This document shows, piece by piece, positions 1,641 through 53,679 of a stretch of 64,000 nt of DNA. The DNA is from Vulcanimicrobiota bacterium. GTDB taxonomy: Bacteria; Vulcanimicrobiota; Vulcanimicrobiia; Eremiobacterales; Eremiobacteraceae. The stretch spans positions 7,319 to 71,318 of the forward strand of contig CAWDVP010000008.1 in the NCBI GenBank assembly GCA_963805945.1. The letters run 5' to 3'. The translations under genes were made by a program, and so were the position numbers. The notes beneath the pieces were generated by a model. The model ran no database searches. It was given only the letters and a program-made list of their open reading frames with translations, and was not told the DNA's origin. Each line of letters starts with the position of its first letter. Position 1 is the stretch's first letter.

Positions 1641-1668
1641 TGTAGGGGCCGATCTTTAGATCGGCTCT
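1641..1668. repeat. single REP-like hairpin (TGTAG head, stem GCCGATC/GATCGGC, loop TTTA); plausible bidirectional terminator
   Basis: TGTAGGGGCCGATCTTTAGATCGGCTC fills the 29-nt gap between the convergent thrS and adhesin stop codons. Same family as 8673-8740. Confidence 0.8.
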
Positions 1669-1669
1669 T

Positions 1670-4600
1670 CTATTGCACCGTCACCGTCAGGAACACGGTG
1701 CCCGACGCACCCGGGTTGAGCAAGCCGGTGAACGTCCAAGTGACGATCCCGCCGGACGGCCCCGATGGGGTGCAGGCCGTCAACGCCGCGCCCAGCGGTC
1801 CGCAAGTGGCGCTCACAAACGTGGTGTTGGGCGGCACCGGATCCGTCACCGCGAAGTTCGTCTCCGGGAACACGCTGGTGTTGGTATAGGTGATCGTGTA
1901 GAGCAGCGTATCCCCAGGGCTTGCGCTGCCGGTGGTCGCGTTCGAGCTGCCGGTGGTCACGTTGCGCACGACCTTGGCCAGCGACATCGAGACATGGCCG
2001 ATGGTGATCTTCGCGGACGCCGGCAAGAGATTGGTCAGCCCGCCCGGCGTGACGATGGCGCCGGCAGGTATCGTGTTGGTGAAGGTACCGAACTGCGTCG
2101 GCGTCGCGGTCGTGATGTACACGTAGACGACGCACGAGGCGCTCGCAGGAATCGTGAAGCTCGTGACGTTGAACGACGCGCCGCCCGGCACGCCGACGAT
2201 CGTCGCGCCGCAGCCCGGCGGCGCGCCGCCCTGCGGCGGCGGTTGCGTGGTGATGTCCTTGATGACGATGGCGCTCGGCAGCGTGTCGGTCACCGTCGTG
2301 ATGGGCTGCGCGACGGCGGACGGATTCTGGAAGGTGAGCGCGACCCAGGTCGTGCCGCTGGGCGGAATCGCCGGCGCTAAGAACGCTTTCGTCAGGCCGA
2401 TGTTCGCCGACGACGTGAGCGTCGCGCTTGCGCTGAACGAGTTCGTCGCGCCCGAGGTCGCGGTGATCGATCCGGCTGGGATGGTGTTGGTCAGATTTCC
2501 CTCGGTGACCGCGGTGACGTCCACGGCGATCGTGCATGGCTGCAGCGCTCCGCCTGCAGTACGCGAGGGCAACGTGGCGCCGCTCAGGACCACCTGACCG
2601 CTGCCTGCGGTTGCGACCAGCGTTGCGTTCGCGCAGGTCGTGCTGGCGTTGGGGATCGCGGCGACGGTCATGCCGGCTGGCAACGTATCGGTGAGCCCCA
2701 CACCCGTCTCGTTGAAGACGATGCCGCCGGTATAGGCTTGCGCGTTGTTCGAGAGCGTGATCAGCAGATGCGAGGTGCCGGCGGCGGGGATGGTGTTGGG
2801 CGTGAAGGTTTTGTTGACGTTGATCTGCGACGGCGCCACGAACACGACGTTGTTCGCGCCGTTCAACGTCTGGAGATTGTCCTCGGTGCTCTGGACGGTC
2901 ATATGGCCGGCGGTGTAGGTGCCGGCGACCGCCGAGATCACGAAGTACGAGATCGTGCACGTGTCTTTGAAGACGAAGTCGGGCGACGTCGCGGTGTAGG
3001 ACGTGCCGCCCGCCCCAGGCGTGAACGTGAGCACAGAGCCTTTCGTGCACGTATAGGTGAACTGCGGCGCGGCGGCCAGGACCACATTCGTGCCCGCTAC
3101 GTTGAAGTTGAAGACCGCGACGAGGTTGTGGTCGTCCGTGCCGGCCGTCGATATGATCCGGTCGCTCACCGAGATCGTGCCCTTGATCGGCGCGACGCCG
3201 ACCGTGGTCGCGCCGCTGCTCGAGAAGTAGTGGGTGAGGGTCAGCCCGTGGTTGACGGTGAGATTGGCGTTGACGTTGGCGGCGTTGGTGATGGTCACAT
3301 TGGCCGAGGTGACCACGGAAAAGCCGCCCGGCGGGATGCTGTTCGTGAGCGTCACCGGTAATGGCGCCGCGACGGTCGGCGTCACAGGCACGCTGACCGT
3401 GCAGGTCCTGGCTCCCGCGGCGATGGTCCCATTCGTCACTGCGATCGACGTGCCGCCGATCGGCGCGATGATCGTCGGTGCGCCGCAATTGGCGTTCGCC
3501 GTCACCGCGGCGGCGACGATCAGACCCGCGGGCAGGTTGTCGGTGATGGTGACGGCGTGCAGCGCCAGTCCGCCCGTCGGATTGATGACGTTGATGTTGA
3601 GCGTCGAATTGTTGGCGCGCGCCACGCTGGCCGGGCTGAACGCTTTGGTGAACGTCACGGTCGGCGTCGGCGTCGGTCCGACGGTGAGCACCGCAGAGGT
3701 GTTGCTGTTCGCTTTGAGCCCCTGGTCGTTGGTCACCGTGCTGCCGGTGACGGTGTTCGTCGGCGTCTGCGACGGCGGTGCGGCAGGCACGAGCACGTCG
3801 AACGTGATCTTGCAAGTTGCGCCGTTCACTCCCAAGCTCGGCGCCGCCGGCAAGGTGAGGCCGGAGACGACGACGGTTGACGTGCCGGCGATCGTGCCCG
3901 CCGGTCCGCCGCAGGAGTTGGCGAAGTTCGGGACCGCTGCGAGCAAGAGACCGCCCGGCAACACGTCTGAGAAGCCGAAGTTGGTCAGGGGGATGAGGTC
4001 GCGGTTGATCGCCGAGATGGTGATGGTCACCGTCGCGCCGGGGACCGTCGTCGCCGGCGTGAAGCTCTTGACGATCGTCGGCGTGATCGGGAAGTAGGTC
4101 ACGTCGGCGGTGGTGCCCGCGTTGTTCATCACGCCTTGCGCGCTGGTGATCGCCTGCGAGGCCACGGTGAGCCGCTGGCTGCGCTGTGAATTCGAGAACT
4201 GGCCGTTGACGCTCACCGTCACCTGCACCGTGCAGGAGCCATTGGCCGCGATGGTCGCTCCGGTGACGCTGAACGTCGGCGGGGATACCGCGTTGTTGAA
4301 GGTCGCGACGCCGCCGCAGGAATCGGTGACGCTGACGATGTGGAGCGTCGCGCCGCCGACCGGCGACGAGAGCGAACCGGGGATGGTGACGTTGGTGATC
4401 GGCAGCGCGTTCGGATTGGTCACCGTGACGATGAAGACCGGTGATGCGGTCTCCGGCACCTGGTTTGGCGTGACGGTGATCGTGACGCCGAGGTTCCCCG
4501 GGTTGGTGACTTGGAGCGTCGCGGAGGCGGGCGATGAGTTCGTGCCGGCACTGGTGACGAGCGCGCCTGCCGGAATCGTGTTGGTGAAGTTCTGCGCCGA

Positions 4601-13552: not shown

Positions 13553-13566
13553 CCGTTCTCAGGAAT

Positions 13567-13593
13567 GGAGCGGTCGAATTTATTCGACCGCTC
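13567..13593. repeat. single REP-like hairpin, subfamily B
   Basis: GGAGCGGTCGAA-TTTA-TTCGACCGCTC with an 11-bp perfect stem, 15 nt after the pepA stop. Could also act as its terminator. Confidence 0.85.
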
Positions 13594-18057: not shown

Positions 18058-18082
18058 CGGTCGAACGAATTCGACCGCTACA
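18058..18082. repeat. single REP-like hairpin, subfamily B, spanning the whole 34-nt intergenic gap
   Basis: Minus-strand reading is TGTAGCGGTCGAA-TTCG-TTCGACCG. Its TAG is the stop codon of the TPR gene (18078-18080). Confidence 0.8.
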
Positions 18083-18581
18083 ATTTTTGCGCCTCCGTGA
18101 GTTCTTGCGCATAGCGAGCGACGGACCTGTTGTAACGCGGCAGATATTCCGAAAGGGCGGTAAGGGCGACGGCAACGGCTTCGCGCTCGCGCCCTATATC
18201 CACAAGCGCAAGCGCCAAGAAGGCTCGAACCGCGCCATTTAACGCGTCGGTTGCGACCTCTAGCTCGGCCGTTAGCAACGCCGCCGCTTCTCGAGGCTTT
18301 CCGAGATTCCGAAGCGAGCTGGCCATCTGGATGACTGCGCACCGACGACGCTCGCCCACCAAGCCCCCGTCAAGTGCGGCCTTGTATAGCGGTACCGCGA
18401 GATCGGGTTGACCGGTGGAATCGCGCGCTCCGGCACGCTCGAAGAACCCGATAGCGCTTCCCGGCGGCAACTCGGCGGCCAAAGCGTCGACCAGAGCCAC
18501 GAACTCTTTCTCGTCGTGGTCGTCGATCGCGCTCCACAGGTCTGAGATCCGCTGCTCCCACGCTGCATCGGCGTCAGTCAC
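18078..18581 (-). CDS. tetratricopeptide-repeat-like small protein
   Basis: 167-aa helical-repeat ORF (..AVPLYKAALDGGL..MASSLRNLGKPREAAALL..) starting 15 nt downstream of the purF stop. Confidence 0.6.
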   Translation of the reverse strand: MTDADAAWEQRISDLWSAIDDHDEKEFVALVDALAAELPPGSAIGFFERAGARDSTGQPDLAVPLYKAALDGGLVGERRRCAVIQMASSLRNLGKPREAAALLTAELEVATDALNGAVRAFLALALVDIGREREAVAVALTALSEYLPRYNRSVARYAQELTEAQKL

Positions 18582-27624: not shown

Positions 27625-30018
27625 AGAGCTTCTTCAGCGGCTCCGACCACGCGGCCCGCGCGTCGCCGAGCGGTACGTCACAGGCGCCGGCGACGGTGAT
27701 GTTCGGGCCGCCGGTCACACCGAGGCGCAGCGCTCGTGCGGGCACGGCGGCGCAGATCGCTTCGAAGGCGGCGACCTTATCGCGCGCCACTTCGACGACG
27801 AAGCCGGGCTGCTCGCCGAACAGCGCCGCCTGCAGGTCGACATCGCGCGCCCATTCGCGCGGGTCGACGAGACGCGCCCCGAGGGCGCCGTCGGCATCGC
27901 CGCCCAAACACATCTCCGCGACGCAGGCGAGCAGCCCGCCGTCCGAGATGTCGTGCGCTGCGCTGATGACGCCCTCCCGTATCCCGTTGACGACCGCGCA
28001 GAATCGAGGCGTTCGCCTCGGCGTAGTCGAGCGTCGGCAGGTCGGACGCATCGCCGGCAGCGCCGCCGGTCGCCGCTGCCAGCACCGATCCGGCGAGCTT
28101 GTCCGTGCGAGCGCCGAACAGGAAGAGCAGTCGATCCGGCGCGGTGATCTGCATGGTGGCGACGCGGGCGACGTCGTCGACGCGGCCGATGCAGGCGACG
28201 ATCGCCGAGGGTGCGATCGCGCGACCCGCCGACGACTCGTTGTACAGACTCACGTTGCCGCTCACGAACGGCAGCGGCTCGCCCGGCGCGTTGAGCTGGA
28301 GCGATGTCGCCGCTTCCGCGAGTCCCTCGATGCCGTCGACGAGTTGGCGATAGGCGATCGGATCCTCGGGATTGCCGTAGTTCAGGCAATCGGTGAGACC
28401 GATCGGCTGCGCTCCGACTGCCGCGACGTTGCGCGCGGACTCGACGACCGCGTGCGCCGCCGCGAGCTTCGCGCTGAGGGCGCCGTAGCGGGGATTGCCG
28501 TCGACCGAGAGCGCGATGCCTGCGCGCTCGCCGCGCTTGATGATGAAGACGCCGGCGTCCGCATAGCCAGACGGGATGACCGTGGCGCCGCGCACGAACA
28601 TATCGTAATGGGTGATGAGCGGCCGCCGGCTGCACACGTCCAGATGGGAGAGAACCGCCAGCAACGCTCGACTGAAGTCGACCGCTCCATTTCCACGGCG
28701 TATGGAGCGGTCGGATTTATCCGACCGGAGCTCTATCGGCGGCGCCGCTTTCCGCTCCGCCACGATCGGGCCTGCGAGCACGTCGATCGGCAGGTCGATC
28801 AACTTTTCGCCGGCGGCGCGCACGACGTAGCGTTTCGCCTCCGTCACCGTGCCGATGACCGCGGCGCGCGCGTCGGCGGCGATCTCCGGCAGCGTGAAGT
28901 GCTGGTTGTAGATCTGGAGCAGCCGTCGGCGTGAACGATGGCGGCACCGCCCACAGCATGCGCTCTTGCGTCTCCGCGCAGGCGATGACGAAGGGCGGCA
29001 GCCCGCTCGCCGCCTGCGGCACTTTGTCGATGTCGATCGCGGCCCCGAATCCGCCGGCGTTGCTCAGCTCACACGAGCTGCCCATGATGCCGCCGGCGCC
29101 GAGGTCCTTGAAACCGACCTGCAGCCCGAGCCGCTCGATCTCCGCGAACACCGCGTATGACGCGCGCATGATAACGCTCTTGAGGAACGGATCGGGGACC
29201 TGGACCGCGCTCTTGTTGGCCTGCGCTTCCGCCGCGTCGAGCACCAGCGAGGCGAACGCGGCGCCGCCGAAGCCCGATGCGTCGGTCGCCTTGCCGACGA
29301 GCACGAGATCGTATCCGGCGCCGCCGGCCGGCACGCGGCTATGAAGGATGCGGTCGGCGCGCACGATGCCGAGCGCCACCACGTTCACCAGGCAATTGTC
29401 GGTGAACGACTCGTTGAAGTAGACGTCGCCGGCGATGTTCGGCACGCCGACAGCGTTGCCGTACCCGCCGATCCCGTCCACCGCGGCCGCCGCGACGTAT
29501 GCGGCATGCGAGCCGGGCGTCGGCAGGCCGAAGCGCAGCGGATCGGCGCTCGCCACGACCTCGGCGCCCATGCACAACACATCGCGCAGGATGCCGCCGA
29601 CGCCGGTCGCCGCTCCCTCGAACGGCACGACCTGCGATGGATGGTTGTGGCTCTCGTGCGCCACGACGACGCCGTAGTCCACGCCGTCGAGGGTGGCCGC
29701 GCGCAAAATGCCGGCATCTTCGCCGACGCCGACGAGCACGTCGGCGCTGCGCACCGGCAGCGCTTTGAGCAACGGCCGCGAGCTCTTATACGAGCAATGC
29801 TCGCTCCACTGGATCGCGAACGCGTGGGCTTCGGCGCGCGTCGGATCGCGTCCGATGCGCGCTGCGATGGAGCGCAGTTCTTCCGCCGAAAGCGCGAGCG
29901 CCTCGCGGCGTGCGAGGCGCTTGAGGTCCTCGTCCGAGGCGCCGGTGATCGAAAGCGGCTCCGCCGACAAGGAGACTGATGGAGCGGTCGATGCCGTTCG
30001 ACCGTCCTTTTCTCTCAC
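27617..30018 (-). CDS. purL: phosphoribosylformylglycinamidine synthase II; two frame breaks (~28928, ~28000) and two in-frame palindromic-repeat insertions
   Basis: WSEHCSYKSS, HESHNHPS and GGYGNAVGVP (ORF 28717-30018). LLQIYNQHF..ITHYD..SGNVSLYNE (ORF 27777-28847). AAHDISDGGL..tail (ORF 27617-28051). GTG 30018 overlaps the upstream stop (GTGA). An alternative TTG start lies near 29966. Confidence 0.9.
28666..28727. repeat. pair of inverted REP-like hairpins (subfamily B) inside the purL coding sequence
   Basis: GCTCGAC-TGAA-GTCGACCGCTCCA (28666-28689), 13-nt spacer, TGGAGCGGTCGGA-TTTA-TCCGACCG (28703-28727). Translated in frame as ELRSDKSDRSIRRGNGAVDFS. Confidence 0.75.
29980..30007. repeat. 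single REP-like hairpin (subfamily B) at the 5' end of purL
   Basis: TGGAGCGGTCGA-TGCCG-TTCGACCGTCC. If GTG 30018 is the start it encodes DGRTASTAPS. Otherwise it lies in the short gap upstream of TTG ~29966. Confidence 0.75.
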
Positions 30019-32680: not shown

Positions 32681-32791
32681 TGTGCTGATTTCGTTCGGCG
32701 CGGGACGCTAGCGCCCTTTCCGAGCCTCAAGAGAGAGCGGTAAATCCGCCGCATCGAGGACCCGCATCCAACAGGTGAACAATCGCTATGT

Positions 32792-33818
32792 CTATTTCCG
32801 CGCCGTGAGGCGCACGATCACTTCTTCGAGCGCTTGGTCAGCCTGACGCCGGCCCGTGATCGAACGCTCGAGCGCCGCCATCGTGACGTCGACACGCTCT
32901 TTCAATTCTTTCTTCGACAGGCCGCGTCCGACGCCCAAGAGCTTGTTGACGCGCCACGCGTTCTGACCGCTCGCGGTGGCGTATTCATTGCCGCGCGCGC
33001 CGTTGTGCAGTTCCCAGATGATCTGCTGCTCGCCGGCGAGCCACACTAGCGGGCCGATCGCCGCGCTCGGATCGGTCGTGAGCTCCTTCGCGAGCTTGAG
33101 CGCGAGATCGGTTTTGCCGTCGTTGATCGCGCCGGCGAGGTCCCAGAACTTCACATCGCTGCTCGGCAGCGCGTACTCGCGCACGTCCGCCTCCTTGATG
33201 TCCTTCTTCAGCAGCGACAGCAGGTCGATGGCGTTCTTGATCTCGGCGACGTTCTCGAGCGAGGCGAGCGCGTTCACCGCGCCGGCGTCCATCGCCACCT
33301 TGATCTGCGCGGCATAGTCCTCGATGTACTTCTTGCAGCCCGCCGCGTTGAGCGTCACGTCGATGACGATCGAATCGTCGCAGGCCTTGGCGAATGCCGC
33401 CGCCTCGTCCATCGGCTTGCGTCCTTGCGGCCTGGAAGGCTTGCCGCTGTGGTCGATGAGCAGCAGCGCCTGCTCGGGCGTGTCTTCCGCTGCGGAGACG
33501 ATCTCGTCGCGGTCTTCCTTCTTGAGATCGATGGTGCCGCGCACCACCACGACGCGGCGCGCGGCGAGGAACGGCATCGCGGCGGTCTTCTCGGCGATCG
33601 CGCCCAAGCCGCCCGCGCCGCGCGCATCCACGACGTCGACGTTGAGCGCGCGCATCGATGCATCGGGCACTGCCGCGGCGAGATCAGCCGTGCCACGACC
33701 TCGTCCGCGAGGATCGTCTCCTTGCCCGCGATCACCACGAGCCGAGGCGGCCAGTGCGGCTGGGCTGGCGGCGAACTGCAGAGTAGCCGATCTTGCCCGC
33801 CGGCTTCTTCGCAGGCAC
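32792..33818 (-). CDS. holA: DNA polymerase III delta subunit; start uncertain, 1-3 frame breaks in the first ~60 codons (~33672, ~33735, ~33780)
   Basis: [19 protein letters not shown] (ORF 33355-33738), then [34 protein letters not shown].. to the end of ORF 32792-35026. Candidate starts are GTG 33818 and GTG 33738. Confidence 0.75.
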
Positions 33819-33819
33819 C

Positions 33820-34911
33820 TTAGGGACGGACCGCCGCGCGGATCGGCTCGCGCGCGAGCATCTCCGCGATGGCGACGCCGAACGGCGGCCGCAGGTCGCC
33901 GAACTCGGTCGCGAAGGCGCTGATATAGACGAGCAGGCGTCACGTCGAACGACGGATTGGCGACCGGCGCGTCCGGCGGCGCGATCGGCGTGCCGCGCAC
34001 TTGCAGCACTTCTTTCGCATCGCGCTCCTCGATCGGGATATCGTCGCCTGTCGCCATGCTCGCGTCGAACGTCGAACGCGGCGCCGCGACGTAAAAGGGT
34101 ATGCCGTGCTCGCGTGCGAGCACCGCGAGACCGTAGCTGCCGATCTTGTTCGCGGTGTCGCCGTTGGCGGCGATGCGGTCGGCGCCCACGATGACGGCTC
34201 CGATCTCGCCGCGGCGCATGAAGTAGGCCGCCATGCGCGTCGGTGATGAGCGTGAACGGGATGCCGTCGCCGAGCAGCTCGTACGTGGTGAGCCGCGCGC
34301 CCTGCAGCTGCGGGCGCGTCTCGCCCACGTACACCGCGCGCAGCTTGCCCGCGCGCCAAGCGGAGCGGATGACGCCGAGCGCCGTGCCGTAACCGCCGGT
34401 GGCGAAGTCGCCGGTATTGCAATGGGTGAGCACTTGCACGCCGTCGGGCAGCAGCGCCTCGCCGGCGGCGCCGATGCGGCGGCATGCCTCGATATCGTCA
34501 GCGTGCAGCGCCGCGGCCGCGACCTGCAGCTGTGCGGCGACGGTCTTGGCCGACGCACCGCCGTTGATGTTGCGCTTGGCCTCGTTGAGCAATTCGTTGA
34601 CCGCCCAAGGCAGGTTGACCGCGGTCGGCCGCGCCGACGCGAGCGTCTGCGCCGCGTCGGAGAGCATGGCGAGGAAATGGTCCGGGCTATCGGCTTTTTG
34701 CGCCGCGTCGAGCGCCGCGATCGCCAGGCCGTATGCCGCCTGCGATGCCGATGGCCGGCGCGCCGCGCACGCGCATCTCGCGGATCGCGTTGACGACCGC
34801 CGCCGGCGAGTCGAGCGACAGCACCTCGACCGCGTCGGGCAGTTTGGTCTGATCGATGAGGCGCAGGATTGCCGGCTCGTAGGCGATGTGCGGCGGGCGC
34901 TGCGGGGTCAT
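33820..34911 (-). CDS. mtnA: S-methyl-5-thioribose-1-phosphate isomerase (eIF-2B alpha/beta/delta family); three frame breaks (~34738, ~34240, ~33925)
   Basis: [20 protein letters not shown]|[46 protein letters not shown] and [10 protein letters not shown]|[10 protein letters not shown], ending TAA 33820-33822. The pieces lie in four ORF-track frames. ATG 34911 overlaps the upstream stop (ATGA). Confidence 0.85.
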
Positions 34912-36220
34912 GCGCGCGCGAACTCCTGGTCGGCGACGCTGAGCGCCTCGCCGATGATGCGCGCCGCCTCGTCCGCCTGCGCGATGGTGACGACGAGCGG
35001 CGGTTGGATCCGCAGCGTGCTCGCATACAGCCCGCCGCGCCCGATGAGCAGGCCTTTGTCTTTGCACAGGTTGAGGACGCGCTCTGCCGCTGCCCCGGCC
35101 GGCTCTTTGGTGGCGCGATTGATGACGAGTTCCACGCCGATCATGAGCCCGCGCCCGCGCACCTCGCCGACGATCGGATGACGCGCGGCAAGCGCGCGCA
35201 GCGACGCCATGAGGTGCGCGCCGACCTTGCCGGCGTTGGCCGTCAGGTTCTCTTCTTCTACCACCTCGAGCGCGGCGACCGCGGCGCGCGAGGACAGCGG
35301 ATTGCCGCCGAACGTGTTGATATGCGGTCCTTGATATGCGTCGGCGATCTCCCGGCGCGCGATCACCACCGAGATCGGCAGTCCGTTGCCCAGGCCCTTC
35401 GCCGAGGTGATGATGTCCGGCGTGACGCCCCAATCGGTGATCCCGAACATGTTCGAGCCGAGCCGGCCCCATGCCGTCTGCACTTCGTCGGCGATGAAGA
35501 GGATGCCGTGGCGGTCGAGGATCTCCTTGACCTTCGGGTAGTACTCGGGCGGCGGCGTGATGATGCCGCCGACGCCTTGGATCGTCTCGGCGAAGTAACC
35601 GGCGACGTGGCCAGACGTCTCGGTCTTGATGATGTTCTCGATGGCGTCCGCGCACGCGATCTCGCACGATGGATAGGTGAGGTTGAGCGGGCAGCGATAG
35701 CAGTACGCGTTGGGCGCGAACACGATCTTGCTCGGCTCGCCGCCGAAGTTGCGCCACGCCGCTAAGCCGGTGATGCCCACCGTCCACGCGGAGCGGCCGT
35801 GGTAGGCGTGGGCGAGCGCGATGAACTCCGAATGTTTGGTGAAGTGGCGGGCCAGCACGCGCCGCCAGTTCATTCGCCTCGGTGCCGGAGTTGCCGATGA
35901 AGACCTTGTCCAGGCCGGGCGGCGAGATCTCGGAGAGCTTCTCCGCCAGATCGAGCATCGGCTCGTTCAAGTACAAGCGTCGAGGTGTGGACGATCTTGT
36001 CCACCTGATCGTGGACGGCGGCCTTCACCTTCGGGTGGTTGTGGCCGGCGACGAGCACCGCGATGCCGGCGAAGAAGTCGAGATAGCGGCGGCCTTCGTC
36101 GTCGGTGACATACGCGCCGTCACCCGAGACCAACGTCAGCGGCTCCGGATAGTAGGTCTTGGCGCAGTCCATGAGATACGCGGCCTTGCGTGCTGCGTTG
36201 CGGTTCGCTACTTTCGCCAT
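34908..36220 (-). CDS. class-III pyridoxal-phosphate aminotransferase; two frame breaks (~35980, ~35875)
   Basis: [18 protein letters not shown] (ORF 35870-36253), [22 protein letters not shown] (frame of ORF 34687-35976) and [31 protein letters not shown] (ORF 34908-35873). Confidence 0.85.
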
Positions 36221-36314
36221 GGTGGCGCTGAAGGTTCTACGCCCCCGGCACACGCGCCCCCCGGGGCACGCGCCGCGCGGGGATGGCGCGTGCTCCGGGC
36301 GAACGCGCCAGCGC

Positions 36315-37148
36315 GTGCATCACCATTTCCGGCTTGCCTTGGCCTGCGCGGTCGCGGTCGGCGTCGCGGCGCTCGCGTCGCCGCTGGGCGCCCGATCCGA
36401 CGATGCGCCGGCCGACGACGATCCCTGCCTTTCGCTGCTCGCGGTCGTCAACAGGCCCACCATCGGCACGAGTCCGTGCTCGGTCAAGCCCGGCAAGGTG
36501 CTATTGGAAGCAGGCTACACGAACGGGGCGTCCGGCGACCTTCACATCAACCTCGCCACCGCGCCGCAGTCGGTGTTCCGCATCGGTCTGCCGCACGATC
36601 TCGAGGTCGACGTCACGCCGCCGTCGGAGAACTGGCAGTCCACGGCGGGCGGTGTCGCGAGCGCGGGCACGAGCGATTCCGGCATCGGCATCAAGTACGA
36701 GATCGGGCACCATCGACGCTTCGCGTATGCGGCCGGTCTCAACGCGACGTTTCCGACTGGTTCGCTCTCCTTCACCAGCGGCTCGCCCGTGTACACGTTG
36801 AGTTTCGACGAGTCGTATGCGCTCAGCCGCACCGTCGGCCTAGCCGCGTCGCAGTACGTCATCAGCGCGACCGGGAGAAATGCGGCCGGCGGACTGACGC
36901 GCTTCATCTCCTTCGCACCCACGGTCGTCGTCAGCCAGGCGTTGGGCCTGGACGCGCAAGCGTATCTCGAAGGGTATAGCGCGATCCCGTTCACACCGGG
37001 CGGCGGACCGCGCTACTTCTACGATGGGGGCGTGCAGCAGGCGATCGCCAACCGCGTGGAGCTCGACGTCGAGGTGGGATCGAACTTCGCGACCGCTTCG
37101 AGCGGTCATTCGCACTACGTCGGGTTCGGCCTCGCGATATTGTTCTGA
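36315..37148 (+). CDS. outer-membrane beta-barrel channel (MetA-pathway/transporter-like family)
   Basis: GTG 36315 starts signal peptide MHHHFRLALACAVAVGVAALASPLGA. Alternating beta-strand pattern, and the C-terminus ends ..VGFGLAILF (terminal Phe). Confidence 0.7.
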   Translation: MHHHFRLALACAVAVGVAALASPLGARSDDAPADDDPCLSLLAVVNRPTIGTSPCSVKPGKVLLEAGYTNGASGDLHINLATAPQSVFRIGLPHDLEVDVTPPSENWQSTAGGVASAGTSDSGIGIKYEIGHHRRFAYAAGLNATFPTGSLSFTSGSPVYTLSFDESYALSRTVGLAASQYVISATGRNAAGGLTRFISFAPTVVVSQALGLDAQAYLEGYSAIPFTPGGGPRYFYDGGVQQAIANRVELDVEVGSNFATASSGHSHYVGFGLAILF

Positions 37149-37163
37149 CGGGCGATCGAGCCG

Positions 37164-40100
37164 CTAGATCTTGTGGAAGCCCAGCAGGCGGCGCAGCACG
37201 CCCGTGAAGGTGAGCAGGGCGAAGGGTATGAGCAGCCATCCGGCCGCACGCAGCAGGCCGGCGGACGAGGCGGCGGTGACGGGCGAACCCGGGATGCCGC
37301 ACCCGGAGACGCGCCACGACGTGAGCAGCGCAGGATCGAGCGACGCGTAGGTCGCGATGCCGAGCGCCGCGGCGTCGTCGAGCGGCGCGCGCTCGTCGCA
37401 CGCAGCCGTTGTAGCGGTCGAATTTATTCGACCGTCCGCCGGCACCGCTGAGCCCGGCACGAATGCGAAGATGAGGAACGCGATAAGCACCGGCGCGAGC
37501 AGCCACGCGAGCATGCGCCACGGCCGCACGCCGTAGCCCGGGATCGCGCGCAGCACGCGGTCGCCCAGCAAGCGCAACAGATCCGCCCAGCAGGCCGCGG
37601 TCCACGGCGGATTGCGGAACGGCCGGATCGCGTCTCCCTCGAGTTCGCGTCGCATGTAGAACGCGTCGGCCGCCATGCGGGCCTGCGCGCGCGGCGAGTG
37701 CGCGGGACCGCGCTGTCCTTTGTCGACGGCGCGCGCCGGGAACACCGCATCGTCGCTCGGCGCTTGCGACGCGGACTGCAGCACGACGAAATGACCGCCG
37801 CGCAGGTCGAGGGTGAGGCCATGGTCGCTCGAACGCGCCGGCGCCGGCGCGGGCGTGAGTTCGCCGTTGCCGCGCGCAGGCCGCCCCGAGACTGCTTGCG
37901 CGCGCACGCTCTTCGCCGCGGCGCGCTCGCCGATGCGCAGGCCGCGGAAATGCATCCAGCGCAGATCGAGCGGCGCCTCGAACGTCGCATCGGAGAACAC
38001 CGCGTCGCGGCCGACGCGGCTGCCGACAAAACGGGTCTCGGCGGCGAAACTCGCGCGCTCGCACAGCAGGTCTGAGGTCACGTCCGCACCATCGAAGATC
38101 GCTCGGCGGGCGAACGCTGCGCCGCTGCAATCGAGCTGTCCGCCGATGTGTGCGGCGTCGAAGCGCGCGTCGCCGCCGAAGCGAGCACCCGAGCACAGCA
38201 TGTCCGACTGCACGCTTGCGCCTTCGAAGTCGGCCGGCCCATCGAAGCGCGTCGTGCGCAGCTGCAGCCCCTCGCCGAACGTCGCACCTGAGAATTCCGC
38301 GCGCGCGGCGAACGTGGCATCGTCGAAGCTCGAGTCTTTGCCTGCGCTGATCCTGTGGAACAGGGTGTCGCCGCCGAACGTCGCGCCACTCGCGTCGACG
38401 CCGCCGGCGATGCCGACGTCGTTGCAACGCACTTCGCCCTGCAGTCGTGCCGCCCGCATGCCGAGCGCTCCCCGCACCTCTGCGCCGTCGAACAACGCGG
38501 CGCGCGCGAAGACCGCCTTATCGAAGGACGCGCTGCCGCCGATACGAGCGCCGCGGAAATCTGCATCCGCATCAAATGCGGCAGCGCCGCATTCCAACGA
38601 GCCGCCGGTCTGCACGGCGCCGAACTGCGCCGCGCCGGTGAAATGGGATCCCGTCAGGGTGGCGCCGGCGCCGATGCGCGCCGCGCCGAAATTGGCCTCA
38701 CGGGCGAAAGTGGCGCTCGTGCCTGCGACGCCGCCACCGACGACGAGCGAGCGGAACGTCGCGGGGCCATCGAAGCGAGCGCCATCGATCTTCAGATCGC
38801 CGCCGACCTTGGCGTGCGCAAAGGTCGCGTCCTCGCAGAAATGCGCTTTGCTGGCGAGCAGCGCGCCCTTGCAGGAAAGGCTCGCGAAGCGCGCCGCGCG
38901 CGCGAGGGTCGCGCCGCTCAGGTCCACGTCGCCGCCGCTCTCGGCGGCGCTCAGATCGATCTCGCCGCGGCACTCGACGTTGGCAGCGGCGATCGCGCCG
39001 GCGCGCAGGCTCGGCATCGCGGTGGCGCCCGCGAAAACCGTCCAGGCGAAGCACGCCCGCCCGTCCACGCGGACGTTCGGCAGAGTCAGCTGCGGCGGCG
39101 AAGGTCGCGCGCGTGCAGTCGAGCGAGCCCAGGCGCGCGTTGGCAAAGGTGACAGGACCATGGAACGCCGCGTGCGTGAAGTCGGCTTCGCCGGCGACGC
39201 GCAATTCGCTCAGGTCGGCGCCGCGGTCGAACGAGGCGGACTCGCACGACAGCGCGCCGCCGACGTCGCAGCCGCGCAGATCCGCGCCTCGCCTTGAATT
39301 TCGCGTCCTCGAGGTTCAGGTCCGCGCCGACGCCCATGCCCGCGAAACTCACGTCGCGCTCGAACACCGATTGCAGGCACAGCACGTTGCGCGCCATCGC
39401 GCGCCTCTTTGAGCGACACGGTCGCGGCGAACACGATGTTCGACAGCGTGAGCTGCGCCAGCTGGGCGCCTTCGAACGCCACCTCGCCGCCAAAGGACGC
39501 GCCGGTGGCGATGACCGCCTCCGTGACGCGGATCGACGGGAACAGCGCGCGTCGCCGGAAGTGCGACTCCGAAAGATCGAGCTGGCCGCCGATCTGCGCG
39601 CGCTCGAGCCGCACGTCGCCGTCGAAGGCCGCGCGCTTGAGGCTCGCATGCCGCACGACCGAGAGGTCGATGAGGGCGACGTCGCCGGCGACGAGCGCGC
39701 CCTCGAGGATGAGGTCGCCGCCGATCTGCAGTTCTTGGCACTCGAACGGTCCATGGATCTTCAGCGCGTCGCCCGTGAGCGAGCCGCCGATCCTGGCGCC
39801 TTTGGCGCGCAGCGCGTCCGTCGACGTCGGCGTCATGCAGGCTCAGTGCGCCGCCGATCGCGACACCCGCGAGATCGAGTTCGCCGCTGAACTTCACGCC
39901 CGCGAAACTGACGTCGCCTTCGCCGCGCATGCCGGCGAGGATCACGCGGCCGCCGAACGCCGTGCCGTCGAAGCGGACCGCCTGCAAGAAGCGCGCATCG
40001 CCGAGTGAGATGCCCGCGGCGCGCGAATTGGTGATTGCGAACGAAGCCGGCACGTAGCGTCCGCTCAAGTCGAGGTCGCCCGCGATCACCGCGTTGTCGA

Positions 40101-40242
40101 TGTCGACCGCAAGGCCGAGGCGGACCGCCTCGAGGATCCAGTCGGCGCGGACGACGCGCGCGGCTTCGCCGGCCTCGCCAGGAAGATGCAGCGGCGTGCC
40201 GGCGAGCAGCGCCTGGAGGTTGCTATCGCCGACGACGTCCAT
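37164..40242 (-). CDS. giant pentapeptide-repeat protein (~1025 aa) with C-terminal two-TM membrane domain; four frame breaks (~39820, ~39405, ~39290, ~39095)
   Basis: A(D/N)LxG-type repeats in ~20-aa super-repeats run through ORFs 39349-40245, 39210-39836, 39086-39754, 38698-39204 and 37164-39161. The C-terminus has GYGVRPWRMLAWLLAPVLIAFLIFAF and LLRAAGWLLIPFALLTFTGVL. ATG 40242 overlaps the ribH stop (TGATG). Confidence 0.8.
37410..37434. repeat. single REP-like hairpin (subfamily B) inside the pentapeptide-protein coding sequence
   Basis: TGTAGCGGTCGAA-TTTA-TTCGACCG on the plus strand, read on the minus strand in frame as DGRINSTAT between the two TM segments. Confidence 0.8.
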
Positions 40243-40745
40243 CAATCGAACTTCCTACGCAGTTGTGCCATCGCGACGGCGCTGCACGCCGCATCGTAGC
40301 CCTTATTGGATGTAGCGGTCGAATTTATTCGACCGGGCGGACGGTCGACTGAAGTCGACCGCTCCATATGCTCCGCGGCATTTCCGCCGTCTGCGGCCGA
40401 GCGCTCGCGCGCCTGCTGCTCGTTCTCGGTGGTGAGCACGCCGAAGATGACCGGGATGCCGGTTTTCAGCGCGACGTCCGCGATGCCCCGCGCCGCTTCG
40501 CCCGCGACGTATTCGAAGTGAGGCGTGTCACCGCGGATGACGCAGCCCAGGCACACCACGGCGTTGTACGTCTTGGTCTGCGCCGCCCACAGCGCGGCGA
40601 CCGGCAGCTCGAACGCGCCGGGCACCTCGAAGACGTCGACGAGGTCCGCCTCGATCTTCGCCTCGGCGAAGCCGCGGCGCGCGCCGTCGAGCAGCGCCTG
40701 CGTGATCGGCCCGTTGAAACGGCTGCGGATGACTGCGAAACGCAC
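40242..40745 (-). CDS. ribH: 6,7-dimethyl-8-ribityllumazine synthase carrying a ~24-aa in-frame repeat-derived insertion
   Basis: RFNGPIT, VPGAFELP, LGCVIRGDTPHFEYV and GVLTTENEQQARERS..GGN-[AAEHMERSTSVDRPPGRINSTATSN]-KGYDAACSAVAM. One continuous ORF. Confidence 0.9.
   Translation of the reverse strand: MRFAVIRSRFNGPITQALLDGARRGFAEAKIEADLVDVFEVPGAFELPVAALWAAQTKTYNAVVCLGCVIRGDTPHFEYVAGEAARGIADVALKTGIPVIFGVLTTENEQQARERSAADGGNAAEHMERSTSVDRPPGRINSTATSNKGYDAACSAVAMAQLRRKFD
40311..40366. repeat. REPIN-like doublet (subfamily B) inside ribH
   Basis: TGTAGCGGTCGAA-TTTA-TTCGACCG, then GGC, then GGACGGTCGAC-TGAA-GTCGACCGCTCCA. Terminal inverted repeats are TG(T/G)AGCGGTCGA. Confidence 0.85.
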
Positions 40746-40754
40746 CGAGGCGCT

Positions 40755-41963
40755 CTACTGGCCCGTCTTCTCGAAGAGGTGGCCGAGCTTCTCTTTCTTC
40801 ACGCGCAGATAGTCGGCGTTGTACTCGTCGCCGTCCACGATGAGCGGCACTCTGCCGGTCATCTTCAACCCGTAGCCCTCGAGCCCGACGATCTTGCGCG
40901 GATTGTTGGTGATGATCTTCATCTCGCGCACGCCCAGGTCGTGGAGGATCTGCGAACCGGTGCCGTACTCGCGATTGTCGACGGGCAAGCCGAGCCGCTG
41001 ATTGGCCTCGACCGTGTCGGCGCCTTCGTCCTGCAGCTCGTAGGCGCGCAATTTGTTGGCGAGCCCGATGCCGCGCCCTTCTTGATGCAGGTAGAGGAAC
41101 ACGCCGCGCCCGTTGCGCGCGATGATGTGCAGCGCGGCGTCGCGCTGCGCGGCGCAGTCGCAGCGCTTGCTGCCGAGCGCGTCGCCGGTGAGGCATTCGG
41201 AGTGCACGCGCACGGGAACGTCGCGGCCGTCGCCGATCTCGCCCATGACGAGCGCCACGTGGCACGCGTGGTCGACGAGCGACTCGTAGCCGTAGCCGGT
41301 GAAATCGCCGAAGCGCGTCGGCATCTTGAAGGTGGCGATGCGCTTCACGAGCTTCTCGTGGCGCATGCGATAGGCGATGAGGTCGGTGACGGTGATGAGC
41401 TTCATGCCGTGCTCCGCGGCGAACAGCTCGAGCCGCGGGCGGCGCATCATCTTGCCGTCGTCGTCGAGGATCTCGCAGATGACGCCGGCCGGATACAGGC
41501 CCGCGAGCTGAGCGAGATCGACGCCCGCTTCGGTCTGTCCGGCGCGCACGAGCACGCCGCCTTCGCGCGCGCGCAGCGGGAACGTGTGCCCGGGGCAGAC
41601 GAAGTCGCTCGGCTTCGAGCGCGGATCGAGCAGCGCGGCGATGGTCGACGCGCGATCGTGCGCCGAGATGCCGGTGGTCGTCCGGCCTTTAGCCTCGACC
41701 GACACGGTGAACGCCGTCTCGAGCGGCGAGGTGTTCTCGCGCACCATCATCGGGATGTGCAGCTCGTCGAGCCGGCGTCCGATGATCGGCACGCAGATCA
41801 GCCCGCGACCGTGCTTCGTCATGAAGTTGATCGCCTCGGGCGTCACCATCTGCGCCGCCATGGTGAGGTCGCCTTCGTTCTCGCGATCCTCATCGTCCAT
41901 GACGACGATCATCTTGCCGGCGCGGATGTCGGCGATGGCTTCTTCTATTGTGGCAAGCGGCAT
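40755..41963 (-). CDS. ribBA: bifunctional 3,4-dihydroxy-2-butanone-4-phosphate synthase / GTP cyclohydrolase II
   Basis: DDEDRENEGDL and GHTFPL (RibB half). HSECLTGDALGSKRCDC and EGRGIGL (RibA half). ATG 41963 lies within ORF 40755-42464. Confidence 0.94.
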   Translation of the reverse strand: MPLATIEEAIADIRAGKMIVVMDDEDRENEGDLTMAAQMVTPEAINFMTKHGRGLICVPIIGRRLDELHIPMMVRENTSPLETAFTVSVEAKGRTTTGISAHDRASTIAALLDPRSKPSDFVCPGHTFPLRAREGGVLVRAGQTEAGVDLAQLAGLYPAGVICEILDDDGKMMRRPRLELFAAEHGMKLITVTDLIAYRMRHEKLVKRIATFKMPTRFGDFTGYGYESLVDHACHVALVMGEIGDGRDVPVRVHSECLTGDALGSKRCDCAAQRDAALHIIARNGRGVFLYLHQEGRGIGLANKLRAYELQDEGADTVEANQRLGLPVDNREYGTGSQILHDLGVREMKIITNNPRKIVGLEGYGLKMTGRVPLIVDGDEYNADYLRVKKEKLGHLFEKTGQ

Positions 41964-42544
41964 AAGGCCTCGACGTAGCGTGCGACCGGATCGATCTCGA
42001 GGTTGAGGGTCGCGCCTGCGGCTTTGCTGCCGAACGTCGTCCGCGCCAGCGTCTCCGGTATCAACGCGACGGCGAACGCGGCGTTGTCCGCGTCCACGGC
42101 GGCGACCGTCAGACTGACGCCGTCGAGCGCGACATACCCCTTCTCTACGATCATCGGAGCTATCTTCGACGGGATTGAGCACCACACCCTGAAGCCTTGT
42201 CCTTCGGGGGTTTTCGCGCGTATGACGCTGGTCGCATCGACGTGCCCGTAGACGAGATGCCCGCCCATCGGATCGCCGAGGCGCAGGCTCGGCTCGAGAT
42301 TCACGTCGTCGCCCATAGCCAGCGTGCCGAGATCGCTGCGCGCGAGCGTCTCGGGGATGACGTCGAACGCCATCGTATCGCCGGCGATGCCGGCGACCGT
42401 CAGACAGACGCCGTTGACGTTGACGCTCGCGCCGGGCTTCTCGCCGCGCGCGAGCGCCGCGCACTCGATGACGAGCCGTTTGCCGCCGCCCGCCGCGGCG
42501 ATCTCCGCGACGCGGCCCGAGTTGGTGATGAGACCGGTGAAGAT
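41945..42544 (-). CDS. ribE: riboflavin synthase alpha chain; apparent ATC at the expected start position
   Basis: IFTGLITNSG..VNVNGVCLTV..GGHLVYGHVD..VALDGVSLTV (two lumazine-binding repeats). GGAGG lies 7 nt upstream of ATC 42544. There is no in-frame ATG/GTG/TTG at the N-terminus. Confidence 0.85.
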   Translation of the reverse strand: MFTGLITNSGRVAEIAAAGGGKRLVIECAALARGEKPGASVNVNGVCLTVAGIAGDTMAFDVIPETLARSDLGTLAMGDDVNLEPSLRLGDPMGGHLVYGHVDATSVIRAKTPEGQGFRVWCSIPSKIAPMIVEKGYVALDGVSLTVAAVDADNAAFAVALIPETLARTTFGSKAAGATLNLEIDPVARYVEALCRLPQ

Positions 42545-42566
42545 GTGCGTGCCTCCGGATCCGCGC

Positions 42567-43636
42567 TCACGAGCACATCGCGGCCGAGCCGCCGCACCGC
42601 CTCGACGCGAGCGCGCGCGGCGAGCGGGCTCGCGACTCCGGCGACTGAACCGCCGCTCGGCGCGCCGAGCGTGATGGGAGCGATGATCCAATGGATGCGG
42701 TCGACGCAGCGCGCGGCGAGCAACGCGCGCGCAAGTGCCGGACCTCCTTCGCATAACACGCTGAGGCATCCTTGGCGCCCGAGCCGCGCGAGCATATCGC
42801 GCACGTCGACGCGCCCGCTCGGCGTGCTGCTTGCACTGCATGACGGACACGCCGCGAGCCTCGAGCGCCGCGCGCGTCGCGCGCGGCATCGCGTTCGTCG
42901 TCGCCACGATGGTCTGCGCCGCGCGATGATCGCGGACGAGCTTTGAATCGAGAGGGATGCGGCCGCGCGAGTCCACCACGATGCGCTGATACGGGACTGC
43001 GCGTTTGTGCGCGGGCCGCACCGTGAGCAGCGGGTCGTCCACGATGGCGGTCTCGACGCCGATCATGACGGCATCGTGCTCGATGCGCTGCGTGCGCGTG
43101 AAGCGCGCCGCCTGCGCGCCGCTGATGCTGCGTGCGTTCGCCGCGCCGGCGCGCGACGAATCCATCGAGCGATTGCGCGAGCTTAAGGGTCACGTATGGG
43201 ATGCCAGTGAGGCGTTGCTTGCGGTACATGCGATTCTGTTCTTGCGCTTCGCGGCGCCGTCGCCCAGCTCGACGACGAGGCCGGCTCCGCGCAGCGCTGC
43301 GACGCCGGCGCCGCGCACATGCTTGTCCGGATCCTCGATTGCGATGACCGCACGCGCGATGCCGACGCGCGCGATCGCGGCGACGCATGGCGGCGTACGA
43401 CCGCGATGCGCGCATGGCTCGAGGGTGACGTAGATGGTCGCACCGCGCGCGCGCGCGCCTGCTTGGCGCAGAGCGACGATCTCGGCGTGCGGCGCGCCGG
43501 CGCGCTGGTGATAGCCGGAGCCGACAACCCGCCCGTCGGCGACGATCACCGCGCCGACGAGCGGATTAGGACTTGTGTCGCCGGTCGCGCGCGCCGCGAG
43601 GGCAAGTGCTCGGCGCATGAAGCGCGACGTCGCCAT
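42567..43636 (-). CDS. ribD: bifunctional riboflavin biosynthesis deaminase/reductase; at least three frame breaks (~43250, ~43165, ~42830), 3' end uncertain
   Basis: NPLVGAVIV and HAEIVAL..VTLEPCAHRGRTPPC (ORF 43190-43657). PYVTLKLAQSLDG (ORF 42567-43415). DAVMIGVETAIVDDPLLTVR (ORF 41945-43165). LCEGGPALA (ORF 42400-42804). A TGA at 42567-42569 would end the gene if one more indel is assumed. Confidence 0.8.
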
Positions 43637-53622: not shown

Positions 53623-53652
53623 GACGACGACCTCACTCTTGTTTGCGGGCTT

Positions 53653-53679
53653 TGGAGCGGTCGACTTCAGTCGACCGTC
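53653..53679. repeat. single REP-like hairpin (subfamily B) between asd and lysC
   Basis: TGGAGCGGTCGAC-TTCA-GTCGACCGTC within the 68-nt intergenic gap. Confidence 0.85.

Follow-up and report, generated by a model that had tools for sequence, protein, structure and literature searches.

The GTAG-tagged superfamily of repetitive extragenic palindromic (REP) elements was described by Di Nocera, De Gregorio & Rocco (2013; PMC3733652), and the concept that links REPs with RAYTs (REP-associated tyrosine transposases) by Nunvar et al. (2010; PMC2817692). The one-sided tag of GTAG REPs may degenerate at positions 2–3, and copies that lie in frame within genes have been catalogued; more than half of these are dimers encoding 20–30 amino acids, for which the authors suggested neutral insertion in flexible loops or linkers (PMC3733652). 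Here we report a 58-nt pair of REP hairpins at positions 40310–40367 of a 64,000-nt stretch of DNA from a Vulcanimicrobiota bacterium (contig CAWDVP010000008.1; hereafter 'the window', meaning the whole stretch that was analysed). The pair lies in frame in ribH, the gene for lumazine synthase, between the segments encoding helices a4 and a5 and just before a conserved N-K-G motif. The explanation that we favour, at a probability of about 80%, is that two REP units with GTAG and GGAG tags became ribH coding sequence in the a4–a5 loop and are tolerated as a surface loop. The features concerned, in the direction in which ribH is read, are as follows.

40242–40745, minus strand: ribH coding sequence, 504 nt and 167 amino acids, 6,7-dimethyl-8-ribityllumazine synthase (identified from its open reading frame (ORF), Pfam, the Protein Data Bank (PDB), AlphaFold2 and substitution rates (dN/dS)).

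40368–40391, minus strand: codons 119–126 (DGGNAAEH), lineage-specific part of the a4–a5 loop, of non-REP origin, including H126, which hardly varies within the clade.

40342–40367, minus strand: REP unit A, AT-GGAG-C-GGTCGA-CTTCAG-TCGACC-G, sense to the ribH mRNA, coding for about M127–R135 (MERSTSVDR).

40336–40341, no strand: 6-nt spacer between the hairpins, GGCGGA (TCCGCC on the mRNA), which differs among lineages.

40310–40335, plus strand: REP unit B, AT-GTAG-C-GGTCGA-ATTTAT-TCGACC-G, antisense to the ribH mRNA, coding for about G138–T145 (GRINSTAT).

40299–40310, minus strand: codons 146–149, S-N-K-G, where RibH sequence resumes; all 115 sequences compared have N147, K148 and G149.

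The ribH frame is uninterrupted, and its sequence agrees exactly with that quoted in a first-pass annotation of the window (ORF list and translation). Its product matches the Pfam profile DMRL_synthase (PF00885; 3e-49, residues 1–163), and the best solved relative is the lumazine synthase of Bacillus subtilis (PDB 1rvv, 1.9e-34), to which it aligns in two stretches, residues 2–122 to 14–134 and residues 143–167 to 130–154. Between N122 and K148, the equivalent of Lys135, there are 25 residues that B. subtilis RibH lacks. F10, H76, R115 and K148 correspond to Phe22, His88, Arg127 and Lys135 (B. subtilis numbering) and are invariant in 115 relatives. AlphaFold2, given the 115-sequence alignment, predicts a flavodoxin-like core with a confidence (predicted local distance difference test, pLDDT) of ~98 and a pTM of 0.82, and a Foldseek search with the model retrieved lumazine synthases at TM scores of 0.80–0.87 (top match 1rvv, E 1.9e-15); the product therefore has the profile match, the fold and the active-site residues of a PF00885 lumazine synthase. 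Non-synonymous to synonymous rate ratios (dN/dS) in the core are 0.14, 0.16 and 0.05 in three pairwise Nei–Gojobori comparisons, which indicates a working gene under purifying selection. The claim of the first-pass annotation that a palindromic repeat lies in frame in an uninterrupted, functional-looking ribH, just before N-K-G, is thus borne out by the ORF, the Pfam match and the 1rvv alignment.

The insert contains two perfect 9-bp hairpins, CGGTCGAAT/ATTCGACCG at 40316–40335 and CGGTCGACT/AGTCGACCG at 40342–40361, which with their flanks make up a 26-nt inverted repeat that is 85% complementary (40310–40335 and 40342–40367). Compared with shuffled sequences it folds stably, both as RNA (−31.8 kcal/mol, z −3.25) and as DNA (z −4.07), the DNA centroid being an alternative, single long hairpin. 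The two hairpin motifs have 11 and 10 matches in the window, compared with 0.05 and 0.03 expected from shuffles. Both ribH units fit the consensus of this repeat family fully (24/24 and 24/24), including their unpaired GGAG and GTAG tags. An identical copy of unit A lies between genes at 53652–53677, with another in a related locus (L074), and the 24 nt of unit B recur at 37411–37434 in a pentapeptide-repeat gene, so that both genes hold the block GGT CGA ATA AAT TCG ACC GCT ACA in the same reading frame. Translated in frame, the pair gives M127–T145, MERSTSVDR-PP-GRINSTAT (57–58 nt, 19 codons). In the nomenclature of PMC3733652 the ribH element is an HH heterodimer, with tags outward, loops CTTCAG and ATTTAT and a 6-nt spacer that reads TCCGCC, TCCGCA or TCCGTC on the mRNA, depending on the lineage.

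The oriented family unit is (A)T-G[G/T]AG-C-GGTCGA-N6-TCGACC-G, as defined from a census of 77 non-redundant units in the window and related loci. The unpaired head is GGAG in 41 units and GTAG in 32, always on the same side, and 64 units have T before it; the two bases of the inner stem pair covary (A–T in 55 units, G–C in 10, C–G in 7). A single unit forms a stem of 8–9 bp with a loop of 2–4 nt (−10 to −13 kcal/mol), and so has the short palindrome of GTAG REPs together with their one-sided tetranucleotide tag. Copies are dispersed, with 9 units in the window and at least dozens of loci in each of two metagenome-assembled genomes (MAGs). An open-frame test on third-codon-position GC left 62 of the 77 units unflagged, and four ribH units among these 62 are coding all the same. 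When we scanned 185,579 species genomes for the motif, the matches listed fell mainly in a small number of Eremiobacterota MAGs (MFD05705.bin.1.187, bin.1.164, bin.2.6 and CRAIB_MAG119), with single matches in other phyla; NCBI now names this phylum Vulcanimicrobiota. Head usage is genome-specific: bin.1.187 (CAVYXC01) has 28 GGAG and 8 GTAG heads, bin.1.164 (CAWETU01) has 2 GGAG and 20 GTAG, and the window has 6 GGAG and 3 GTAG.

The family resembles the GTAG REPs of PMC3733652 in several respects: a short hairpin whose 7–9-bp stem closes a short loop and which has an unpaired G-x-A-G tag on one side; copies dispersed by the tens, mostly between genes, with a minority wholly inside ORFs that encode known proteins; sub-families that differ by complementary exchanges of stem bases; singlets alongside HH, TT and HT dimers; and a shared host gene, FGAM synthase (purL) being among the hosts in O. 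terrae. It differs in that tag position 2 is G or T here, with GGAG about as common as GTAG; in PMC3733652 the GGTCGA...TCGACC sequence does not appear in the text, ribH is not among the listed hosts and the phylum Eremiobacterota/Vulcanimicrobiota is not named. Hairpin-preserving change is followed here at one orthologous in-frame site, and we found no such report in that paper; nor did a literature search find a paper linking Eremiobacterota with REPs. What is new here is the REP family, the phylum and the host gene, whereas the kind of event is already described, for intragenic GTAG REPs and for Rickettsia palindromic elements (RPEs).

RPEs (Ogata et al. 2000, 2002), as far as they are summarised in PMC10969869 and PMC3733652, are likewise palindromic repeats that lie in frame in unrelated housekeeping genes, encode fold-compatible peptides and are kept across species. 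In those summaries RPE-1-type elements are ~100–150 bp long, the short RPE-4 and RPE-6 carry a CGTC tag rather than GTAG, and the hosts are obligately intracellular Rickettsia, whereas here 24–26-nt units with GTAG or GGAG tags occur in a soil lineage that is free-living; the sequences of the two are unrelated. The analogy with RPEs drawn in the first-pass annotation holds at the level of 'works like', with units in frame in ribH, purL, LarC, MutS2 and other genes: size and tag set the two apart, and in-frame residence is a shared behaviour, not membership of one family.

The extra residues of RibH are not all repeat-derived. Alignments of 33 and then 115 RibH relatives (A1 and A3) revealed that the whole Eremiobacterota RibH clade, REP-free members included, has ~12 more residues in this loop than B. 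subtilis, with a near-invariant His (H126) separated from S-N-K-G by a variable run of 6 to 17 or more residues. Of the 25 extra codons, 19 come from the REP pair; AAEH and S on either side of it are native loop, and the excess over close REP-free relatives is ~11–13 codons. The first-pass annotation had equated the extra ~24 codons exactly with the element; its REP part is 58 nt, or 19 codons, and the rest is the clade loop. An Asn duplicated at both junctions had likewise been taken for an insertion scar. We rejected the Asn–Asn pair as a target-site duplication because N122 is Ser in two sister lineages, which makes the pair a coincidence. The stretch M127–T145 is confined to the window and its closest relatives; RibH proteins at 71–77% identity have no REP segment, and the relative L002 (71% protein identity) reads ...GH-AGDRGGVT-SNKG at the same site. 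The a4–a5 loop is a length hot-spot across the clade (A1 columns ~135–180). In the ribH of P0038 (L099, 492–512) an expanded loop holds a perfect 8-bp hairpin (CGATCACC...GGTGATCG); checked as possible decayed REPs, the long RibH loops of P0003 and P0038 contain only small generic GC palindromes.

In the AlphaFold2 model residues 120–143, between helices 109–117 and 148–166, have pLDDT below 50, so that the proposal that the insert forms a surface loop agrees with a predicted position outside the confident core. Mutation of Lys134/135 in lumazine synthase has a weak catalytic influence and Arg126/127 is critical, and the N-terminal strand of capsid enzymes extends the sheet of a neighbouring subunit (PMC2935281). 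In Aquifex aeolicus the loop 129–133 lies at the pentamer–pentamer interface, and a conformational switch is needed for capsid closure (PMC13376624). The window RibH begins at the equivalent of B. subtilis residue 13, and its clade has no such N-terminal strand. The a4–a5 loop, moreover, is longer by 12 residues in the clade and by 25 here, in place of the short G-T/G-K-A/H-G-N of icosahedral 60-mers. Because the clade combines the missing strand with a long loop, capsid formation is doubtful even without the REP; the clade enzymes are probably not 60-mers and may assemble as pentamers. The first-pass annotation had placed the insert next to a catalytic residue of a capsid-forming enzyme, a description that fits neither the weak influence of Lys134/135 nor the architecture of this clade. 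Yeast-type pentameric lumazine synthases have extra residues in the same loop, before (N/H)-(K/H)-G; theirs number 1–4 and are not repeat-derived, compared with 12 in the clade and 25 in the lineage here. The Saccharomyces cerevisiae enzyme, reportedly pentameric and non-capsid (Persson, 1999; Meining, 2000), is reported to have an 'IDEA' insertion in its a4–a5 loop. The REP in ribH would have landed in an already permissive loop.

That the segment is an ordinary lineage-specific RibH loop which resembles the repeats by chance, with no insertion at all, we regard as extremely improbable. The longer, length-variable loop of the whole clade does agree with such a reading, and about six of the 25 'extra' codons belong to it; the ordinary loop that the first-pass annotation had named as a possible outcome holds for the flanking codons only, and for the 19 REP codons this outcome is already refuted by a full consensus match of both units, unpaired tags included, over 58 nt, by the identical 24-nt block in another gene and by the relatives at 71–77% identity that do without the segment. 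An assembly or sequencing artefact, or a decaying or redundant ribH copy, is also very improbable, even though the window is error-prone. Over the 9.2 kb shared with L001 (32736–41943), the window has a single extra base inserted at 13 points and two extra bases at one, with frameshifts in neighbouring genes (for example at ~39816, 39399, 39289, 39084, 36250, 35976, 35859 and 34737); none of these insertions is in a homopolymer, and the L001 ORFs are intact. The insertions split a 1024-amino-acid pentapeptide-repeat gene into ORFs 39349–40245 and 37164–39161. At ~1.5 per kb, these indels look like assembly or sequencing error rather than pseudogenisation, and the apparent frameshifts in purL and ribD/ribE probably have the same cause, the comparison with L001 having covered 32736–41943. 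All of the extra bases are in the window only and none is in ribH, whose core dN/dS (0.05–0.16) and four invariant active-site residues speak against decay. The same 504-nt ribH with the insert occurs in L001, a JGI contig with 90% nucleotide identity to the window over the 9.2 kb, and in two mutually identical ENA contigs from different projects (L101 and L102); because three independent assemblies carry it, mis-assembly, which the first-pass annotation had named as a way in which its reading might fail, is excluded.

The alignment of orthologues that the annotation had called for thus places the insert in three lineages (the window, L001 and L101/L102) and finds it absent from L002 and more than 100 other clade members. 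By this comparison, the insertion is shown to be older than the split of at least three lineages. The nearest RibH proteins carry the label Eremiobacteraeota. A metagenome scan with the invariant junction GAGCATATGGAGCGGTCG gave 14 matches, all of them chance matches in unrelated genes, and no further lineage with the ribH insert.

Within these lineages the hairpins are kept while the peptide drifts. The REP codons have dN of 0.10–0.19 compared with 0.01–0.03 in the core, and dS of 0–0.07 compared with 0.18–0.21. Pairing is perfect throughout (48/48 stem cells): of the three stem pairs that differ among lineages, each has changed in a compensatory way. Unit A of L101 shows A–T to G–C and C–G to A–T, taking the peptide from STSVD to SDSSD. 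A stem pair of unit B is T–A in the window, T·G in L001 and C–G in L101, its T·G state being a wobble solely on the mRNA-sense strand (U·G). In simulations with the observed numbers of substitutions, all 16 pairs were kept in three lineages in ~7e-4 of trials, and were kept with as many stem changes as observed in ~3.5e-5. These figures point to an insert that acts as a constrained nucleic-acid structure with an unconstrained peptide. Retention of the hairpins can reflect selection on the hairpin or, equally, template-switch correction of quasipalindromes or conversion from family copies.

It is possible to read the hairpins as having been co-opted as an RNA or DNA element under selection, with the peptide as a by-product; candidate roles are a block to 3′–5′ mRNA decay, a site of mRNA processing or translational pausing close to the junction of ribH with the downstream gene, and a site for a REP-binding protein. 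Compensation at all three changed pairs, in one case through a pairing available only on the mRNA-sense strand, the conserved synonymous sites beside fast-changing amino acids, the low simulated frequency of such retention and the argument in PMC3733652, from G·T pairing, that many REPs act as RNA all agree with it. The same pattern, however, would arise without benefit to the host through template-switch correction or conversion by family copies, and both derived stems are already present elsewhere (GGTCGG/CCGACC at window 28704 and GGCCGA/TCGGCC at L033 4981). The C–G to A–T swap in unit A takes two transversions and could not have passed through a wobble pair, a pattern more in keeping with templated replacement. 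Scans for terminators and promoters around the insert gave no signal, and a search of the whole window with Rfam at the gathering threshold gave no match at all, whether at the insert, to an FMN riboswitch or to any REP-like RNA already known. Over 100 REP-free relatives also manage without the hairpins, which occur in three lineages only, and we consider co-option rather doubtful. The transposition of a single REPIN-type doublet into ribH in one piece, rather than as two singlets, is a possibility that we hold to be unlikely without dismissing it. Its arms form the 85% complementary inverted repeat noted above (100% for the tails in L001) and could fold as one long hairpin, in many GTAG families dimers are most often of the HH type (PMC3733652), and the ancestor shared by the three lineages already had both units. 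The census, however, speaks for singlets: 61 of the 77 units stand alone, and the 8 dimers comprise 5 in tandem, 1 with tags in and 2 with tags out, both of the latter at orthologous ribH sites, so there is no other head-out dimer in the sample. Two inverted units with a short spacer, foldable as one long imperfect hairpin, are indeed REPIN-like, and REPINs are reported (Bertels and Rainey, 2011) to be fixed-spacing doublets that form the abundant replicating unit. An inverted doublet is not the predominant unit here, which is why the term 'REPIN-like doublet' used in the first-pass annotation does not suit this family. The two ribH units, moreover, are different loop variants, each of which is a singlet elsewhere, and 56–58 nt cannot be divided evenly into codons, whereas two units of 24 nt preserve the frame; their excision leaves ...AAEH-SPP-SNKG in frame. 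Given this frame-intact excision, two independent singlet insertions would be at least as likely as one doublet.

Our preferred explanation, that two REP units became ribH coding sequence and are tolerated as a surface loop, can be set out as a mechanism. The two units, head-out and 6 nt apart, would now occupy the a4–a5 loop immediately before S-N-K-G, having arrived perhaps as two separate singlet insertions, a simple route that would be neutral to the frame. A 24-nt unit (T-GKAGC plus an 18-nt hairpin) amounts to 8 codons and is mostly free of stops, so that insertions would often keep a gene open: read from the consensus, the GGAG-headed unit is stop-free in 5/6 frames and the GTAG-headed unit in 4/6. 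The TG-TAG of the GTAG head is a stop in one sense frame, which is unit A's frame in ribH, and this fits the GGAG head of unit A. Copies in permissive loops or linkers would survive purifying selection. Because this loop was already ~12 residues longer than that of B. subtilis, variable in length and predicted to be disordered, the 19 REP residues could be tolerated at the surface while the active-site residues F10, H76, R115 and K148 would stay in place. We hypothesize, from family resemblance only, that a RAYT-type transposase mobilised the units, and that the hairpins are maintained by processes that belong to palindromes or REPs as such (template-switch correction, conversion, or selection on DNA or RNA structure) rather than by a role for the peptide.

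Several points weigh against this explanation. With its flanking A/T and closing G the conserved unit comes to 25–26 nt, and the 58 nt of the whole pair do not divide by three; how exactly the insertion took place is beyond reconstruction, the two-singlet model being just one of the solutions that fit. The dN/dS of the 19 REP codons rests on 8 changes in three lineages, and a column-shuffle control for covariation with three sequences was weak (31/500). We found no RAYT/Y1 transposase, the partner that GTAG REPs have, in ~0.8 Mb (window plus loci) by tblastn with Escherichia coli YafM and a scan for HUH...Y motifs. The count of ribH copies covers the 64-kb window, and a second copy may lie elsewhere in the genome. 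In the same transposase search, a gene in L011 that is flanked by a REP pair was considered as a candidate and rejected, as it encodes an SPFH/band-7 protein.

Within the window, five of the nine units lie in genes (the ribH pair, a purL pair and the pentapeptide-repeat singlet) and four are intergenic or in a leader. The sites outside ribH are the following.

13565–13590, plus strand: REP singlet, intergenic (family census).

18058–18083, minus strand: REP singlet, intergenic, upstream of a signal-peptide gene (family census).

28665–28727, no strand: REP dimer with tags inward ('TT'), in frame in the purL interdomain linker (RSDKSDRS-IRRGN-GAVDFSRA; family census).

29979–30004, plus strand: REP singlet that overlaps the first 12 codons (REKDGRTASTAP), at the very 5′ end, of the longest purL ORF.

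37409–37434, plus strand: REP singlet, in frame (DGRINSTAT) in the gene for a pentapeptide-repeat membrane protein (Pfam Pentapeptide_3), kept in L001.

53652–53677, plus strand: REP singlet in the interval between asd and an aspartokinase gene, identical to ribH unit A.

The singlet in the pentapeptide-repeat gene directly follows a VPAD junction, and L002 has the same junction free of REPs. The purL site in L005 has another loop variant (GAVEFIRP) four codons from the unit in the window, and this difference points to recurrent independent insertion into the same linker. In the window, purL is represented by minus-strand ORFs 28717–30018 and 27780–29063, with a frameshift near 28850; the unit at 29979–30004 is probably in the purL 5′ leader, the true start lying downstream. 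In relatives, Pfam-confirmed in-frame units lie inside LarC (Ni_insertion), in the MutS2 linker, in the transpeptidase domain of PBP1, in a MobA-like transferase, next to an ETF domain, in ValRS and in a GGDEF/GAF protein, and a further one in a NicO-like protein has a weak Pfam match. The reading (D/H/P)GRINSTA(T/P) was found in seven loci. Orthologous REP sites among the loci collected were confined to ribH and the pentapeptide-repeat gene, plus the purL sites, which are not identical.

Two denser arrangements occur in relatives. In L020 (CAVYXC010000002.1, 1184001–1192000) four REP units lie in 3.7 kb (1–3800) with no convincing long ORF, which may be a ribosomal RNA or other non-coding region. 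In L002 about four tandem copies of a 23-nt unit (GTTCCGAGCGAAGCCGATGTAGC), each with the head-like motif GATGTAGC, directly follow an intergenic REP (929–1050) and may be a clustered or degenerate REP array; both the REP and the array are absent at the orthologous site in the window, ~49750.

The gene ribH is the last rib gene of a conserved ribD-ribE-ribBA-ribH cluster. Directly upstream of it is the following gene.

40755–41960, minus strand: ribBA (DHBP synthase/GTP cyclohydrolase II), identified from its ORF and gene order; the start is approximate and was set from 401-amino-acid orthologues.

The same ribBA gene order occurs in L002 and L100, with Pfam PF00926 and PF00925. A long minus-strand ORF at 41945–43165 passes from RibD-like sequence through an Arg-rich, out-of-frame stretch to riboflavin synthase (HIFTGLITNSGRV...), a pattern that suggests another frameshift in ribD, an error at the ribD–ribE junction, or both. 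In many bacteria nusB follows ribH, which is not so here. The gene that follows is the one for the pentapeptide-repeat protein (~1020 amino acids, with a C-terminal membrane segment; window 37164–40245, minus strand), whose start overlaps the ribH stop; it lies at 1702–4776 in L001 and 10474–13530 in L002, and its pairing with ribH is kept in every relative that we examined.

With five of the nine window units coding, in-frame REPs may well be common in this phylum, and the ribH site extends the range of in-frame selfish palindromes from Rickettsia, a few Proteobacteria and Verrucomicrobia to an uncultured phylum of soil. It also provides a natural experiment, as one orthologous site in three lineages separates DNA- or RNA-structure constraint from protein constraint within a single ORF. 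For lumazine synthase, a widely used nanoparticle scaffold, it suggests that natural enzymes, non-capsid forms at any rate, can accommodate 25 or more extra residues in the a4–a5 loop. In annotation, it follows that REP-rich, high-GC MAGs hold genuine genes with repeat-coded loops that should not be called pseudogenes or mis-assemblies. A wider proposal, which seems to us unlikely, is that the REP family is a general and ongoing source of protein loops, with hairpins under nucleic-acid selection while they are translated and with RibH fixed in a non-capsid state by the insertion, added to the longer loop of the clade. If this were true, the family would be a free-living counterpart of the RPE phenomenon in Rickettsia, and ribH would carry a functional structured element within its coding sequence.

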